Of a DNA stretch of 64,000 nucleotides, positions 3,881 to 56,530 are shown in pieces. The translations under genes and the position numbers were made by a program. Under the pieces are notes generated by a model. It was given only the letters and a program-made list of their open reading frames with translations. It was not told the DNA's origin and made no database searches. Source of the stretch: a virus; IMG/VR virus record IMGVR_UViG_3300023174_003623, positions 90,778 through 154,777 of that record; one strand, written 5' to 3'. Numbering within the stretch: the first letter of the stretch is position 1; each line of letters opens with the position of its first letter.

Positions 3881-4141
3881 ATGTCTAATATAGAAATAAT
3901 TGATTTAATTAAGTATGCAAATGAAAATCAACCTGTAAATTTTTCGGCTGCATTAGACAATATTTTAAGTCAAAAGACATTAGATGCTCTTGTTACAAAA
4001 AAAGAAGAAGTATCATCTACAATGTTCAATGGCCCAGATGATGAAGAATATGAAGATGATGAAGAATATGAAGATGATGAAGAATATGAAAATACAGAAG
4101 ACAACACCGAATTAGAAGACGATGGAGAAATAGATGATTAA
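3881..4141 (+). CDS. gp67: Prohead core protein (gp67-like), acidic tail
   Basis: Small acidic protein right after portal; DDEEYE x3 encoded by an 18-bp tandem repeat. Confidence 0.7.
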   Translation: MSNIEIIDLIKYANENQPVNFSAALDNILSQKTLDALVTKKEEVSSTMFNGPDDEEYEDDEEYEDDEEYENTEDNTELEDDGEIDD

Positions 4142-5132
4142 TTTATCAGAACTTTTAGATCGTGCTAAAAAGAAGGCTTTAGAAAAACCTGATAATAAAG
4201 ATGGGTATGCTCCAAAAAGCACTGATGAATTACGATTCAAACGTAAACATGTAGTTAATACTACACCAGATGCTAATAAAAATGGTGATGATGTGTTCAA
4301 GGGCACCAGCGTTAAGGCTGTAGATCGTGCTGGAACACGCTTTGGTTATAATCCCGGTCAAGATGAAGAAGTTTATGAAGAAGTCAAGAAGAAAAAAGTG
4401 TGCAAGGAATGTGGTAAAAAATACACAGGAAAGCAATGTTCTTGTTGCATGAATGAAGCAAAAACAAGAATGCCATTAGATGGGCACCCTTATCATAATA
4501 AATCTGATGCTGAATTAAAATACATAATTAAAGATGCGGGTGAAGCTGCTCAGGCTATGCGTGGTCAAGATTCCAAAGCTGAAAATAAATATTTAGACCA
4601 AGTTAATGATGCATCCACAATTCTTGCTTATCGTCAAAAGCTTCAAAAAAATTCTTATGAACCAGATGGTGAACATATTTCTGAAATGCAATGGAATTAT
4701 GGAAAAAAAAGAGAACCATCACCAAATCCACACCCAGACCATGAATTCAATAAATTATCAGACAAAGAATTAAAAAATATTATAGACACACATAATCAAA
4801 CTTATCCAGAACGCAATGATTATGACCCAACCGGTAACAGACCTTCAAGAAAAACTCCATTAGGGAGTAATTGGTCTTATATGTCAGATAGAGACAAACA
4901 AAAAGAGATAAAACAAAACCCAAAAATTCAAGAATACTTGAAATCAGCTAAAAATTTTCCAATTGCTAAGGAGATCTTACGTTGGAGAGACGGTCAAGTT
5001 AATGAATCTGCTGCTCCCGGTAAAGAAGATTGGATTAAAGCAAATAAACAAAGATTTATCAAGCAATATGGTAAAGAAAAAGGATTAAAAATCCTTTATG
5101 CCAAAGCTTGGGCAATGTCAAAGGGTAAATAA
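4134..5132 (+). CDS. Prohead core / internal head protein at the gp68 position, modular
   Basis: Position between gp67 and gp21; C-terminal SAAPGKEDWIKANKQRFIKQYG...LYAKAW module. Confidence 0.55.
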   Translation: MINLSELLDRAKKKALEKPDNKDGYAPKSTDELRFKRKHVVNTTPDANKNGDDVFKGTSVKAVDRAGTRFGYNPGQDEEVYEEVKKKKVCKECGKKYTGKQCSCCMNEAKTRMPLDGHPYHNKSDAELKYIIKDAGEAAQAMRGQDSKAENKYLDQVNDASTILAYRQKLQKNSYEPDGEHISEMQWNYGKKREPSPNPHPDHEFNKLSDKELKNIIDTHNQTYPERNDYDPTGNRPSRKTPLGSNWSYMSDRDKQKEIKQNPKIQEYLKSAKNFPIAKEILRWRDGQVNESAAPGKEDWIKANKQRFIKQYGKEKGLKILYAKAWAMSKGK

Positions 5133-39165: not shown

Positions 39166-39396
39166 ATGAAAGTTAAATTTGATCCGTCCAACCCTAGCCA
39201 TCTCAGGTCTTATCGAATTTTCTTGACACATAAGACTTGGTTGAATGGCTGCATCTTTGAACTAGAATGGCCGTATCATGACATTCCCGTGATGATTCAG
39301 GCAAAAATTATTGATAAATATCTTGACAAACTTATCAAAATGATGGATACTGAATCTTCTGAAAACAAAACTAAACGTCAACGAAAAAGTGCTTGA
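39166..39396 (+). CDS. Hypothetical protein
   Basis: AGGAGG RBS, upstream TATAAT. Confidence 0.65.
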   Translation: MKVKFDPSNPSHLRSYRIFLTHKTWLNGCIFELEWPYHDIPVMIQAKIIDKYLDKLIKMMDTESSENKTKRQRKSA

Positions 39397-39452
39397 CAAG
39401 TTTTCAAAAGAATTGTACACTAGTTTTCGTAATAACAATTGAGGTGATTTAT

Positions 39453-40409
39453 ATGGCTCATATGATTGAAGAAATTAATGGTGTTGCTCAAATGGCATAT
39501 TCTATTTCGGGTGAAGTACCTTGGCACAGTCTTGGTAAACCAGTTCCGCCCGATCTGTCTCCGAAGCAGATGCTAGAGGCTGCTGGTGTAAACTGGACTG
39601 TTCGCAAGGTTCCGGCTTTTGCAAATGTGAACGGTAAGAACGTAGCGGTTGGTCGTTCTGCTCTGGTTCGCGATTCTGATGATAGCATTCTTGATGTTGT
39701 CTCTGATGATTGGAACATTCTTCAGAACGAAAGTGCTTTTGAGTTCTTTCATGATTTTGTTGCTGCCGGTGAGATGGAAATGCACACTGCTGGTTCTCTT
39801 CGTAACGGTCAGATTGTCTGGGCACTTGCGAAGGTTAATGATGGCTTTGAGCTTTTTAAGGGTGATACTGTAGACTCTTATCTACTCTTCACCAATCCGC
39901 ATCGTTATGGTTGGAGTATTGACGTTCGCTTTAGTCCGATTCGTACCGTGTGTTGGAATACCTTGACTCTTTCGTTGAATACTGCTTCTACGAACATGGT
40001 GAAGGTTTCTCACCGCCGACAGTTTGATTCGGATATGGTGAAGGAAACTCTTGGTGTTGCTAAAGAGAAGTTGGGTAAGTATAAGGAAATGGCTTCTTAT
40101 TTGGGTGCCAAGCGTTATACTGAACAGTCTCTTGTGGAATACTTCAAGAAAGTATTTCCGGTTTCTGGTGCTGGTGAAAAGGAAATGTCTCGTTCTGCTA
40201 GTAAGGCTCTTGATATCATTCATACGCAGCCCGGAGCTTCATATGCTGAAGGTTCTTACTGGCAAGCGTGGAATGCGACTACATATATGGTAGACCACAT
40301 TATTGGTCGTAACAATGACAATCGCCTTACGTCAGCTTGGTATGGTCAGGGCAAGACTCTTAAGAATAAGGCTCTTGAACTTGCGATTACTATGGCTGAA
40401 GCTGCATAG
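39453..40409 (+). CDS. DUF932 / TIGR03299 phage-plasmid protein
   Basis: VPWHSLG, LQNESAFEFF, TAGSLRNG, IRTVCWNTL; promoter TTGACA-N17-TACACT at 39394; GAGG RBS. Confidence 0.88.
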   Translation: MAHMIEEINGVAQMAYSISGEVPWHSLGKPVPPDLSPKQMLEAAGVNWTVRKVPAFANVNGKNVAVGRSALVRDSDDSILDVVSDDWNILQNESAFEFFHDFVAAGEMEMHTAGSLRNGQIVWALAKVNDGFELFKGDTVDSYLLFTNPHRYGWSIDVRFSPIRTVCWNTLTLSLNTASTNMVKVSHRRQFDSDMVKETLGVAKEKLGKYKEMASYLGAKRYTEQSLVEYFKKVFPVSGAGEKEMSRSASKALDIIHTQPGASYAEGSYWQAWNATTYMVDHIIGRNNDNRLTSAWYGQGKTLKNKALELAITMAEAA

Positions 40410-40464
40410 TCCTTCTGACGAGTCTTTAATAGACGAAACGGGAAAAGGATGTCCCGTCAAGGAC
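40409..40464 (+). ncRNA. Type I hammerhead ribozyme
   Basis: Stem I GTCCTT/AAGGAC, core CTGACGA, stem II GTCT/AGAC, GAAA, stem III CGGGA/TCCCG, GUC cleavage triplet (after 40458). Confidence 0.92.
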
Positions 40465-40594
40465 ACGCACCGAGACCTTGTGGTGTATCGGTGACGCGGG
40501 GTATAATGGAATTCCCCAGGAAGAATGTAGGCAGATGAAAGAGTCTTGTCGGAGTTGATCGCCCGCCCTCTCCATCTCACATTCTTAAACCGCG
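40465..40594 (+). ncRNA. Candidate structured RNA downstream of the hammerhead
   Basis: CACCGA/TCGGTG hairpin; nested CGCGG/CCGCG, AAGAATGT/ACATTCTT, AGATG/CATCT, AGAG/CTCT. Confidence 0.55.
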
Positions 40595-40987
40595 CTATAT
40601 CTTTCTAGAAACTATACCTCGACCTTTTGGCGCATATGGTTTTACTCTTTCTACATTCAAAAGAGGATATCCCCATTTACCATTTGGGCCTATATCAAAT
40701 TTAGATTGTGGTGCGACTTGATGTTTGTCGTAATCTCTTCTAAACTCTTCTTCGTTTTTATAAAAGATAGGCTCTCCAACAGTAGCATGACCAACAACCT
40801 GTGCTGGGCCTTTACCTGTTCTTACAATACCTATTTTCTTTCCGATATATGGATGAAGAGTGGGTGTATTTCTGGTTTCAATAGTTTTCTGACCGTGTAG
40901 AATTTGGTCAGTAAAAGGTTGAGTTTTATCGTTTATATTGATACCGATTGACACTTCTTCAGTTATAAAATTAATAAATGAAAGCAT
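40595..40987 (-). CDS. ASCH domain protein with capsid-targeting-like N-terminus
   Basis: QPFTDQILHGQKTIETR (GxKxxExR); MLSFINFITE. Confidence 0.85.
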   Translation of the reverse strand: MLSFINFITEEVSIGININDKTQPFTDQILHGQKTIETRNTPTLHPYIGKKIGIVRTGKGPAQVVGHATVGEPIFYKNEEEFRRDYDKHQVAPQSKFDIGPNGKWGYPLLNVERVKPYAPKGRGIVSRKI

Positions 40988-41003
40988 ATAGTCTCCTTTT
41001 GCA

Positions 41004-41015
41004 TATTTATAAATA
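41004..41015. promoter_or_regulatory. Palindromic bidirectional late promoter TATTTATAAATA
   Basis: TATAAATA on both strands between two divergent genes. Confidence 0.75.
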
Positions 41016-41043
41016 ATATGTCACATTGATAAGGTATAAAAAG

Positions 41044-41595
41044 ATGTTATCATTCTTCGAGTTTATTACAGAAAAAGTTTTATCGATTGGACTAAACCCA
41101 GAACACGAAAAATATCGAACACAACATATGCAAGATATGCACGATATGCTTGTAAAATCATATCATTATGTTGGTGGCTATGCTGGGTTGGGTTCTGGTT
41201 CTGAGGAAGAATCAAAAGCAATTCACTCTGATTTATCCAATCCAGATCATATTATTAAAGTCATTAAAAGAGGCAGTGCAATCACCGCTCTTGCTATGTA
41301 CAAACCACAATTCGGACGTAAAGGTATAGCATCTGCTACTGATGGCACTGCTCAAGGGGTTAAAGATTGGAAAAAAATGAGGGACGAAGATAGTCGTCGG
41401 CATGGTTGGGCGGAAACTTCACATAAAGCTACCGCAGCATTAAAAAAACTAGGCTACCCTGAAATTCCAATTCAAGATATGCAGCGAATCTTATCAAATA
41501 AGAAACTGACACCAACCTCTGGTAACAAATATACTAGAGAGATTGGTGGACACGAACACGAAAAAGTTGGAATGGGCTATCCAAAGCTAGACTAA
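41044..41595 (+). CDS. Hypothetical protein with capsid-targeting-like N-terminus
   Basis: MLSFFEFITE start. Confidence 0.65.
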   Translation: MLSFFEFITEKVLSIGLNPEHEKYRTQHMQDMHDMLVKSYHYVGGYAGLGSGSEEESKAIHSDLSNPDHIIKVIKRGSAITALAMYKPQFGRKGIASATDGTAQGVKDWKKMRDEDSRRHGWAETSHKATAALKKLGYPEIPIQDMQRILSNKKLTPTSGNKYTREIGGHEHEKVGMGYPKLD

Positions 41596-54406: not shown

Positions 54407-55451
54407 TAAAAAGTAGTTGACACCCAGTACCAGCCCTATATAATGCACTCATCGAAACGAACTGGAGAGAACATCATGAAGGCTGACTACTCTGTCGTTG
54501 AAGCTCGCCGCTGGATTCACACTGATGGTCGCACTGCTTCCTTTCACGGTGCGGTGCCTTACTTTGGTGTGAACGATGGCTGGACTGTTGCAATCGTAGG
54601 CTACACTGTGTACAATGCGAAGTCTAACACCTACGGTTGCGGTCGTCCTCCCTTCAAGACCGTTTCTGAGGCTCAGGCGTGGATTGAATCTTTGGCTGCT
54701 TAAGGAGTATACTATGAATGGTTTTGAACTTGTGAACTCTATAGACGAGGTGATGGTTTCTTTAAACAAACCCTACCATGAACGAACTGGGTTTCTTATG
54801 GGGCTGATGGGGATTATGATGAATGAGATGAAACACCACAACCCTGAAGCCTATGCTATGGCTGAGAAGTATATCGAACAGGCTGTGGCTGGTTTAATTA
54901 TTCGCGAACAGGGGAAACTGAATGATGCCGTCACCGCCGCCTAAAATCTTTGGTATGGAAGCAGATACTCTTGCTATTGTGTTTGCTTTTGCTGCAAATG
55001 TTTTGTTGATTGTTCCCACATTCTTTCCGTTGTACACACTTTAAGAGGCTGTTATGAACGATATCGAACCTACCATGACTGAAAACAACAATCCGATTAG
55101 TGATGACTTGACAGAAGCTGAATTGCAGATGCTTCGCGGCCTAAATGCAAGAGGTTATGCTGTTGCTGTATTTACTGCTATTGAAGTTGGTGATGCTGAC
55201 TATCTGGACGTTGAAGATGCTATGATTGAAGCGGGCTGGAACGTCATTTTTAACGAAGAAAGGACTCGCGAATAATGAATACCTATCTGGCTTACTACAA
55301 TCGAAAGACCGTGACTATTCACGCAGAAACTTCATACGAAGCACAGAAGAAAGCCGCCTTTTACTTCAAAGCGAAGAAGGCTTATAAGGTTGCTGTGATA
55401 CTAGTAATGGATTTAAATGGTGAAGTAGTACACGATACTGCTTCGCTATAA

Positions 55452-55701
55452 CCGAACGTGTCGATTAGCCATCGACTAGTGTGCGCCCGCACGATGAGAA
55501 GCCGTGTCGCAGCGGCTGGGCCTTACTCTTAGGTAGCGAAGAGCGGTGGCACCCGATAGTGTTCTGTGGCCGAGAAGAGGATGGTAGGATTGAGTGATGG
55601 TAGTTAGCTGATGGTATCGAAGGGCAGGCCAGCCAGACCCCGGAACCAGATGATGCGAAACTACTTGACAATCTATAGAACCTCCGCACAGAACAAGCAC
55701 T
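55452..55701 (+). ncRNA. Candidate ~250-nt structured RNA
   Basis: GC-rich interval with no convincing ORF; several hairpins plus a long nested helix. Confidence 0.55.
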
Positions 55702-56530
55702 TTCTTTTCAAAATAATTGTTGACACCCAGTACCACTCCCGTATAATGCACTCATCAAAACGAACTGAGGCAATCATATGAAAAAGTTTCTTCTCGACGG
55801 TAAAGAAGTCAATAGGAACGATTATTACAAGGTTGTGGTTGGTAGCAATTCTTCCCCCGCTACGTTTGAATTCCCCTGCCGAGGCTATTCTTTGGAGTCT
55901 GAAATGAAATTCCAGAGCAGCCTGAAACACTTTTCTTTTTTTGTTGAAAAGATTGACGAGAACGAGTACAATACACTTCGTAACGGTGCTGCTAACTAAG
56001 AGGACTTCACGATGATGAACGAATTCGGCTGCTATGACCCCTACTATGACCTGACCGACTCTGAATTGAAAGAACTGAATGAATGGTTCGATTCGGTTGA
56101 CACTCCCCCCGAATTGTGCCAGACTATCGTTGTTGACTTTGTTGACTTTGACCCCAACGAAGACCTTCCGTTTTAAGGAGAATCAAATGGACTACTATCC
56201 TGACCCTGACTCTGCTTACGAAGACCAGTTTCATTCTGAAGACGCCGAATACTACGATACTGAAGAAGTGTACGGTGATGAATACGATGATGAAGACTAT
56301 CGCTTTTTCGGGGAGTTTGAATAATGCAAAAGAATTACGAGTCCTACATCAGCACCAGTCAAGGCATGTGGCGGGTTATACATCAGGGACTGCCAATGTG
56401 TAAAGACTTTCCTGACCGTTCTTCGCCTGATAAAGAAGCGAAACGACTCAGGCTAGACTTGTCGCATGGCTTTCGTTGGGATGGTGATATTGGTGACTGG
56501 GTAGTTGACAGCCCAGTCTGATTATGCTAA

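Follow-up and report, generated by a model that had tools for sequence, protein, structure and literature searches.

The DUF932 locus and its module

The window analysed here is a 64-kb stretch of a 154.8-kb virus record. On its plus strand it carries a gene for a 318-residue DUF932 protein (39453..40409; Pfam PF06067, E = 4.3e-36; PHROG 1221, E = 2e-65). The start codon, ATG 39453, was placed with the help of homologues that begin MAHMIE; it is preceded by the ribosome-binding site GAGGTG (39441-46), and the gene ends with the stop codon TAG at 40407-09. Upstream, the plus-strand site TTGACA-N17-TACACT (39393..39421) is a candidate σ70-like promoter by its match to the consensus only, and it is likely to be the promoter of a transcript that would run through DUF932, the hammerhead and the RNA behind it. 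The −35 hexamer of this site (39393-39398) overlaps the TGA stop codon (39394-96) of the preceding 76-residue gene. A consensus scan between 40409 and 40459 found no promoter-like site.

The last base of the DUF932 stop codon opens a module of ∼186 nt (40409-40594) in which a hammerhead ribozyme is followed, from its predicted cleavage site onwards, by a structured RNA that we call RNA-1. A convergent gene for 130 residues on the minus strand (40595..40987; ribosome-binding site AAGGAG, leader MLSFINFITEE, weak PHROG matches) ends 1 nt after RNA-1, and no plus-strand gene directly follows RNA-1 in the window. As the convergent gene abuts it, RNA-1 cannot be the leader of a downstream gene here. 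The convergent gene is one half of a diverging pair (40595-41595): one gene runs on the minus strand from 40987 to 40595 and the other on the plus strand from ATG 41045, and their N-termini are alike (MLSFINFITEE and MLSFFEFITEK). The pair was probably inserted behind RNA-1 in this phage, since close relatives without it carry small plus-strand genes at that place, starting 20-111 nt after RNA-1. Late promoter motifs of the TATAAATA type stand back to back on both strands at ∼41005-41016. We take TATAAATA to be the T4 late-promoter consensus; this motif and the presence of a Kyanoviridae phage among the DUF932 relatives point to a T4-like lake phage. The record (154.8 kb, 81% complete) gave no matches to RtcB or Rnl2.

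The hammerhead ribozyme

The initial annotation had placed a complete hammerhead at 40409-40464, starting in the DUF932 stop codon, and both statements are borne out. All of the core positions are canonical and the three stems are perfect on the plus strand. Stem I pairs GUCCUU (40409-14) with AAGGAC (40459-64), the core CUGACGA occupies 40415-21, stem II (element 40422-34) pairs GUCU with AGAC (40422-25 with 40431-34) around the loop UUAAU, G12 A13 A14 lie at 40435-37, and stem III (element 40438-57) pairs ACGGGA with UCCCGU (40438-43 with 40452-57) around the loop AAAGGAUG. The residues that mark membership of the class, C3 U4 G5 A6 N7 G8 A9 and G12 A13 A14, are present, with G10.1-C11.1 formed by G40422-C40434 and A15.1-U16.1 by A40438-U40457. 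The cleavage triplet is G40456 U40457 C40458, so that the residue after U16.1 is not a G, as is required at H17, and cleavage is predicted between C40458 (C17) and A40459. In both the Rfam alignment and the minimum free energy (MFE) fold, loops cap stems II and III while stem I is left open, which is the type I layout. G40409 is common to stem I and to the stop codon TAG, of which it is the last base.

A hammerhead covariance model, which the initial annotation had suggested as a check, was run against the window: Rfam Hammerhead_1 (RF00163) matches exactly 40409-40464 with 33.8 bits, 0.2 bits under the gathering score of 34, and its alignment contains a 14-nt insertion in stem III. The E value is 6e-7 in a 301-nt search and 1.3e-4 for the whole 64-kb window on both strands. 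This is the sole match of its type in the 154.8-kb record; the hammerhead of one relative (L004) scores 33.0 bits with the same model. In the window and in seven relatives the hammerhead fold is the MFE fold or differs from it by no more than 0.1 kcal/mol. On this sequence evidence 40409-40464 is confirmed as a genuine hammerhead.

DUF932 relatives and pattern searches of viral and metagenome contigs together gave 18 distinct orthologous hammerheads from 30 public phage and metagenome contigs (30 loci). Their core is invariant, N7 alone being free to be C or U, and cleavage would follow a C in all 18 (a C or an A in more distant members). Stem II occurs as GUCU/AGAC, GCCC/GGGC, GACC/GGUC or GCCU/AGGC, and stem III in three architectures, namely ACGGGA(C)/(G)UCCCGU, ACCGGAAC/GUUYCGGU and a 12-bp stem with a 40-nt loop; one variant has a C·A mismatch among the otherwise compensated stems. 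Stems II and III thus change in compensation around an invariant core, as is to be expected of a functional hammerhead.

Stem I differs from stems II and III, which vary freely: its GUCCUU/AAGGAC pairing is invariant in all 31 distinct hammerheads, close and distant. At its left edge the module has (U)A followed by G; position −1 is A in 31 of the 31 variants in which it could be read, and −2 is U in 15 of the 18 close ones. Fast cleavage by a hammerhead requires loop II to make a tertiary contact with stem I or its flanks. Comparison of the variants demonstrated no such contact; all that was seen is that A(−1) and A(+7), where stem I ends, are invariant. In the variants with loop II UAGU the 4 nt preceding stem I (ACUA, AUUA or CUUA) can pair with the loop (four of four); the loop II of the window, UUAAU, has no pairing partner in the 4 nt before stem I. 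One subclade (L176, L180 and L184) has the core CGUAAC instead of CGAAAC (A13 to U) and the cleavage triplet GUA, and keeps RNA-1; judged from its core, this variant, retained ahead of RNA-1, may cleave poorly, slowly or not at all.

RNA-1

RNA-1, as defined by the alignment of homologues and the covariance model built from it (R1), is a structured RNA of 136 nt that runs from the cleavage site on the plus strand (40459..40594). Its length across the relatives is 110-185 nt and its start is always at the cleavage site; when released from the window transcript it would begin AAGGACACGC at A40459. Covariation supports three plus-strand hairpins: P-a (40466-73/40488-96), P-b (40498-501/40514-17) and P-c, which is long and variable (base 40521-28/40579-86 plus inner pairs). 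In the alignment of 23 distinct close homologues 98% of the cells are paired and 12 pairs have changed on both sides; sliding the structure by 1-3 columns in the same 23 homologues leaves 34-48% of the cells paired. The structure is assigned to the plus-strand RNA because it is on this strand that G·U pairs occur.

In 40 distinct sequences the 3′ end of RNA-1 has, after an AA, six bases that are complementary to six bases of the P-a loop. In the window the two plus-strand segments are UGUGGU (40479..40484), in the P-a loop, and ACCGCG (40589..40594), at the 3′ edge, and they form four Watson-Crick and two G·U pairs. The resulting pseudoknot is fully paired (six of six positions) in 31 of the 40 sequences. 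UGUGGU is found with ACCACA, ACCGCG or ACCGUA, and the other combinations are UAUGGU-ACCAUA, UCCGGU-ACCGGA, GCCGGU-ACCGGC and UUCUGU-ACAGAA. A 16-sequence alignment of the pseudoknot has 95.8% of the cells paired, with four of the six pairs changed on both sides, against 17-55% in slid controls. Its 3′ strand places the 3′ edge of RNA-1 at 40594.

Some local alternatives were set aside. A GG/CC closure of P-c proposed by RNAalifold was dropped, as the CC pairs with the P-a loop and in one relative (L142) covaries with this loop and not with the GG. An ACC/GGU hairpin at the tip of P-a is probably a transient fold only, as the same bases are taken by the pseudoknot. A second copy of RNA-1 was considered at 40620-35; the match has three mismatches, lies inside the convergent gene and was judged to be due to chance.

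RNA-1 matches no family in Rfam 15 at E values of up to 10 (a scan of 40300-40600 returned the hammerhead models and a chance miRNA match only), and its diverged members have no match in Rfam either. The R1 model finds one copy per genome and has no matches in DUF932 loci that lack the ribozyme. A BLAST search with the module against 50,697 phage records gave no match. Pattern searches of 185,579 bacterial and archaeal genomes gave 14 matches, none of them genuine, and no prophage copies. With 40 distinct sequences, RNA-1 is, as judged by sequence comparison, a conserved, structured and previously undescribed family of phage small RNA.

Fusion of ribozyme and RNA-1

The hammerhead and RNA-1 were never found apart, and in every relative the junction between them is the cleavage site. 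A pattern for RNA-1 only, searched against viral contigs, gave 11 genuine matches, all of which carry a hammerhead upstream, and a second RNA-1-only pattern gave three genuine new matches, again all with a hammerhead. The same holds for 23 of 23 metagenome matches, except for contigs that break off inside the ribozyme; the statement that every RNA-1 has a hammerhead counts the copies with enough upstream sequence. Conversely, a pattern for the hammerhead only (the 5′ strand of stem I, the core and CGAAAC) retrieved 16 further viral contigs that have the same stem I throughout, and all 16 continue into a much-diverged RNA-1 of the same build. The exact 15-mers and gapped patterns also gave many chance matches in coding DNA, which were recognized by inspection and by script and left out; they made up about 59 of 70 loci in the first pattern searches, L104 and L105, and 37 of 40 new loci with the second RNA-1-only pattern. 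Cleavage after C40458 had been proposed from the window to release the downstream RNA; this proposal now has comparative support, in that a conserved structured RNA starts exactly there in every relative.

Genomic contexts

DUF932 lies directly upstream of the module in 13 of 24 close loci, and the other 11 have no DUF932 within 4 kb. Among the DUF932 relatives in IMG/VR, the hammerheads of L001, L002 and L004 follow the DUF932 stop codon as in the window; that of L003 lies 380 nt further downstream, behind an extra ORF of 65 residues. Overlap with the stop codon is restricted to the DUF932 lineage (nine distinct variants, stop at −2), and it arises because the stop codon of this lineage takes its third base from the (U)A-G at the module's left edge: DUF932 ends in TAA in relatives without the module and in TAG in those with it. 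In other settings the upstream ORF ends at −3, −12, −17, −46 or −51 or inside loop II (+17), and in several of them the left-edge UAG lies out of frame or goes unused. The suggestion that a terminating ribosome modulates the folding of the ribozyme is not upheld as a general feature. Outside the DUF932 lineage the module has other ORF ends, a tRNA or a noncoding RNA upstream, and with contexts as varied as these a terminating ribosome cannot be a built-in regulator.

The noncoding RNA is a GC-rich structured element of ∼250 nt, which lies upstream in L067 and L097 and ends at the start of the ribozyme; in L096 and L117 the same element comes after RNA-1. The window has a copy of this second conserved RNA on the plus strand at 55448-55702, 15 kb from the module, which is 84% identical to these four elements. 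Its predicted structure has 72 pairs, 16 of which have changed on both sides among only five sequences, and it has no match in Rfam.

In five of the 13 distant members the module sits within a tRNA cluster. In L135 it occupies the place between tRNA-Leu and tRNA-Asn; in L146 the CCA of tRNA-Ile is 1 nt ahead of the hammerhead start, and tRNA-Trp begins 4 nt past the end of RNA-1. Throughout the tRNA arrays RNA-1 ends 2-4 nt before the next tRNA, which fits a discrete RNA gene. Five other distant members have a ribosome-binding site and an ATG 17-25 nt after RNA-1, and in these RNA-1 would, from its position, also be a 5′ leader; the genes behind it are mostly unrelated, being similar only in L134 and L143. 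In L097 a full promoter, TTGACG-N17-TATAAT, was read directly between RNA-1 and the next gene. The module is located in early regions that are rich in small genes.

Seven close relatives (L029, L107, L111, L115, L118, L119 and L121) have, ∼100 nt after RNA-1, a further conserved stretch with hairpins such as CUCAC-GUCA-GUGAG; it lies ahead of the next gene and is not present in the window. In L007 (IMGVR_UViG_3300007541_007656) a two-piece permuted tmRNA followed by tRNAs lies at 4079-4431, ∼1.1 kb downstream of DUF932 (Rfam alpha_tmRNA, 113 bits; tmRNA_permuted, 112 bits), and L138 has a permuted tmRNA of the beta type. A tmRNA was also considered for the window in view of the one after DUF932 in L007; ARAGORN and Rfam find none in the window.

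A probable front end for RNA-1

We consider it probable, from the arrangement of the sequences, that the hammerhead is a built-in front end of RNA-1 and that its main job would be to give RNA-1 a precise 5′ end independently of host enzymes. The ribozyme is assigned to RNA-1 because the fusion is fixed, the upstream partners vary and the structure of RNA-1 is self-contained and covarying. What the loci compared show directly is the motif, conserved and covarying, together with its obligate fusion to RNA-1, the variety of its contexts and the pseudoknot. Transcripts begun at the DUF932 promoter, or at promoters that lie upstream of it, would pass through the gene into the module; the hammerhead would fold once 40464 had been made and would cut after C40458. 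This would leave the DUF932 mRNA with a structured tail of 49 nt ending in a 2′,3′-cyclic phosphate and would free RNA-1 with a 5′-OH at A40459, whereupon RNA-1 would form its three hairpins and its 3′ tail would dock on the loop of the first. We infer that such cleavage takes place in vivo and that RNA-1 exists as a free, stable RNA.

The initial annotation had also proposed that cleavage sets the 3′ end of the mRNA. In DUF932 relatives that have no module a terminator-like hairpin stands at the corresponding position, which fits this proposal; the role is probably a secondary one, and the defined 3′ end of the DUF932 mRNA would be a side effect that replaces the terminator of the relatives. 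Elsewhere the ribozyme would be left on the upstream tRNA or mRNA as a trailer of ∼50 nt, with no obvious benefit to that RNA.

The P-a loop has an invariant GACCU(U) (GACCUU at 40474-79 in the window) that directly adjoins the pseudoknot strand. It is conceivable, although we hold this to be rather doubtful, that the hammerhead is the self-processing front end of a widespread, undescribed RNA family of early operons and tRNA arrays in which, after cleavage, AAGGAC would leave GUCCUU and pair with the internal GACCUU, which would bring the 5′-OH and 3′ ends side by side on one loop. The product would be an RNA with protected ends or one ready for ligation, and phage hammerheads would have a definite task that is open to test. 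Such a refolding step coupled to cleavage is suggested by the invariance of stem I; all of the positions of AAGG/CCUU are invariant, so that no covariation is seen between them, and we therefore offer refolding as a hypothesis.

Other readings of the module have to be weighed against a front end for RNA-1. It could be a portable processing or insulating element, in which RNA-1 would stay on the downstream message as a structured 5′-OH leader that stabilizes or standardizes it, in the manner of RiboJ or of the RNase III sites in T7 early mRNA. The plus-strand genes 20-111 nt after RNA-1 in close relatives, the ribosome-binding sites and start codons within 17-25 nt in five distant members, and the early regions full of small genes all suit such an element. 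In the window, however, a convergent gene follows, in L097 a promoter lies between RNA-1 and the next gene and in the tRNA arrays the next element is a tRNA; where there are downstream genes, they are unrelated and their spacing is variable. We regard this reading as unlikely. We think it quite improbable that the hammerhead serves the DUF932 mRNA, by setting or protecting its 3′ end under the influence of a ribosome terminating on UAG/G40409, with the downstream RNA as a by-product. Such a role would account for the stop-codon overlap kept in nine distinct DUF932-linked variants and for the terminator-like hairpin at that spot in the module-less relatives, but not for the 11 of 24 close loci that have no DUF932 within 4 kb, for modules that follow tRNAs or the noncoding RNA, or for the contexts in which the left-edge UAG is out of frame or unused. 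RNA-1 is, in addition, more conserved than the neighbouring genes and has a covarying structure of its own.

The dependence could also run the other way, with RNA-1 assisting the ribozyme as an accessory domain, be it as a partner in folding or in tertiary contacts, as an allosteric switch or as a product trap in which AAGGAC re-pairs with GACCUU and makes cleavage irreversible. Stem I is invariant in 31 of 31 distinct hammerheads in which stems II and III vary, the P-a loop has beside the pseudoknot strand an invariant ACCU(U) that mimics GUCCUU, and in all 16 sequences aligned RNAalifold has AGG paired with CCU. This pairing shows no covariation, all of its positions being invariant, and would put ten paired bases into a strained 14-nt loop; moreover, the hammerhead is complete by itself and its loop II varies with no matching change in RNA-1, and an accessory domain is in our view very unlikely. 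Finally, the boundaries of the module, A−1/G1 to the left and the pseudoknot's end to the right, are sharp and constant in unrelated flanks, as they would be in a selfish or mobile element, of DNA or RNA, that passes from one phage genome to another and has no function for the phage. The module has one copy per genome, no transposase, reverse transcriptase or ligase (RtcB, Rnl2) is found nearby or in the 154.8-kb record, and phage early regions are mosaic anyway, which makes a selfish element extremely improbable.

Comparison with known systems

The ribozyme by itself is an ordinary new member of the hammerhead class. Phage hammerheads, including those of type I, are well known (PMC3088659), and thousands of bacterial and phage examples have been found, the role of which has been described as unresolved (PMC6765202). 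With the type I hammerheads (RF00163; bacterial and phage examples in PMC3088659) the module shares the catalytic core, the three-helix junction with an open stem I, the GUC triplet, the 4-bp stem II with a U/A-rich loop and the location among phage genes. It differs from them in that stem I is only 6 bp long, has no distal helix and is closed by an invariant A/A pair, and in that the 3′ strand of stem I, itself invariant family-wide, is the first six nucleotides of the conserved RNA-1.

Hammerheads flank genes in the polycistronic transcripts of prophages (Agrobacterium tumefaciens ardA, Azorhizobium), and transcript processing has been proposed for them (PMC3088659; PMC6765202). Like the module, these are self-cleaving RNAs between units of one transcript in phage DNA; whereas they separate protein genes and are not tied to a particular RNA, the ribozyme of the module is always fused to one noncoding RNA family and also occurs in tRNA arrays. 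By analogy, the closest functional parallel is the pairing of theta (HDV-like) ribozymes with phage tRNAs (PMC10879173), in which a phage ribozyme is likewise fused to a small noncoding RNA and an end is made without host nucleases. The theta ribozymes are of another class and mature the 3′ trailers of tRNAs (PMC10879173), whereas the ribozyme of the module would make the 5′ end of an RNA that is not a tRNA. In the literature searched we came across neither a hammerhead joined to a conserved small RNA nor one placed within a phage tRNA array, nor any paper that combines DUF932 with a ribozyme or a hammerhead with a phage tRNA array. RiboJ is an engineered insulator in which a hammerhead and a hairpin stand before a gene; it trims off the variable RNA upstream, so that the 5′ end is fixed and structured. 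The module differs from RiboJ in being natural, in having a much larger, conserved and pseudoknotted RNA and in often having no gene behind it.

The ends of the T4 species 1 and 2 RNAs (rnaC and rnaD) are made by host tRNA-processing enzymes; a ribozyme is not known to be involved. These RNAs resemble RNA-1 in being small, stable phage RNAs (119-139 nt) among tRNA genes and are annotated only as such (NC_000866). The R1 model has no match in the T4 tRNA region that contains rnaC and rnaD at E values of up to 10, and BLAST finds no similarity. The module exposes an unnamed family of pseudoknotted phage RNAs among tRNA genes, the position of which recalls the species 1 and 2 RNAs of T4. It is also a natural arrangement in which the purpose of a hammerhead can be read from its anatomy, as the same small RNA is always fused to it and what lies upstream varies.

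Loop III

The initial annotation had noted that loop III mimics AAGGAC, the 3′ strand of stem I, and had proposed that it competes for GUCCUU to give an alternative inactive fold. The resemblance is real; it is confined to one subclade, being present in 11 of the 18 variants and missing from the other seven. In folding calculations the pairing of loop III with GUCC occurs only in the nascent transcript; in the full-length RNA the alternative is ∼5.5 kcal/mol weaker than the hammerhead fold. This energy deficit and the seven variants without the mimic led us to reject a stable inactive fold.

In the window (40444-40451) and its relatives loop III reads AAAGGAUGU, CAAGGACGU or CAGGGACGU within the hairpin loop. 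These sequences resemble (A/C)ARGGAUGU, which we take to be the binding consensus of CsrA/RsmA, and loops of this kind are found only in the subclade that has the GGGA/UCCC stem III.
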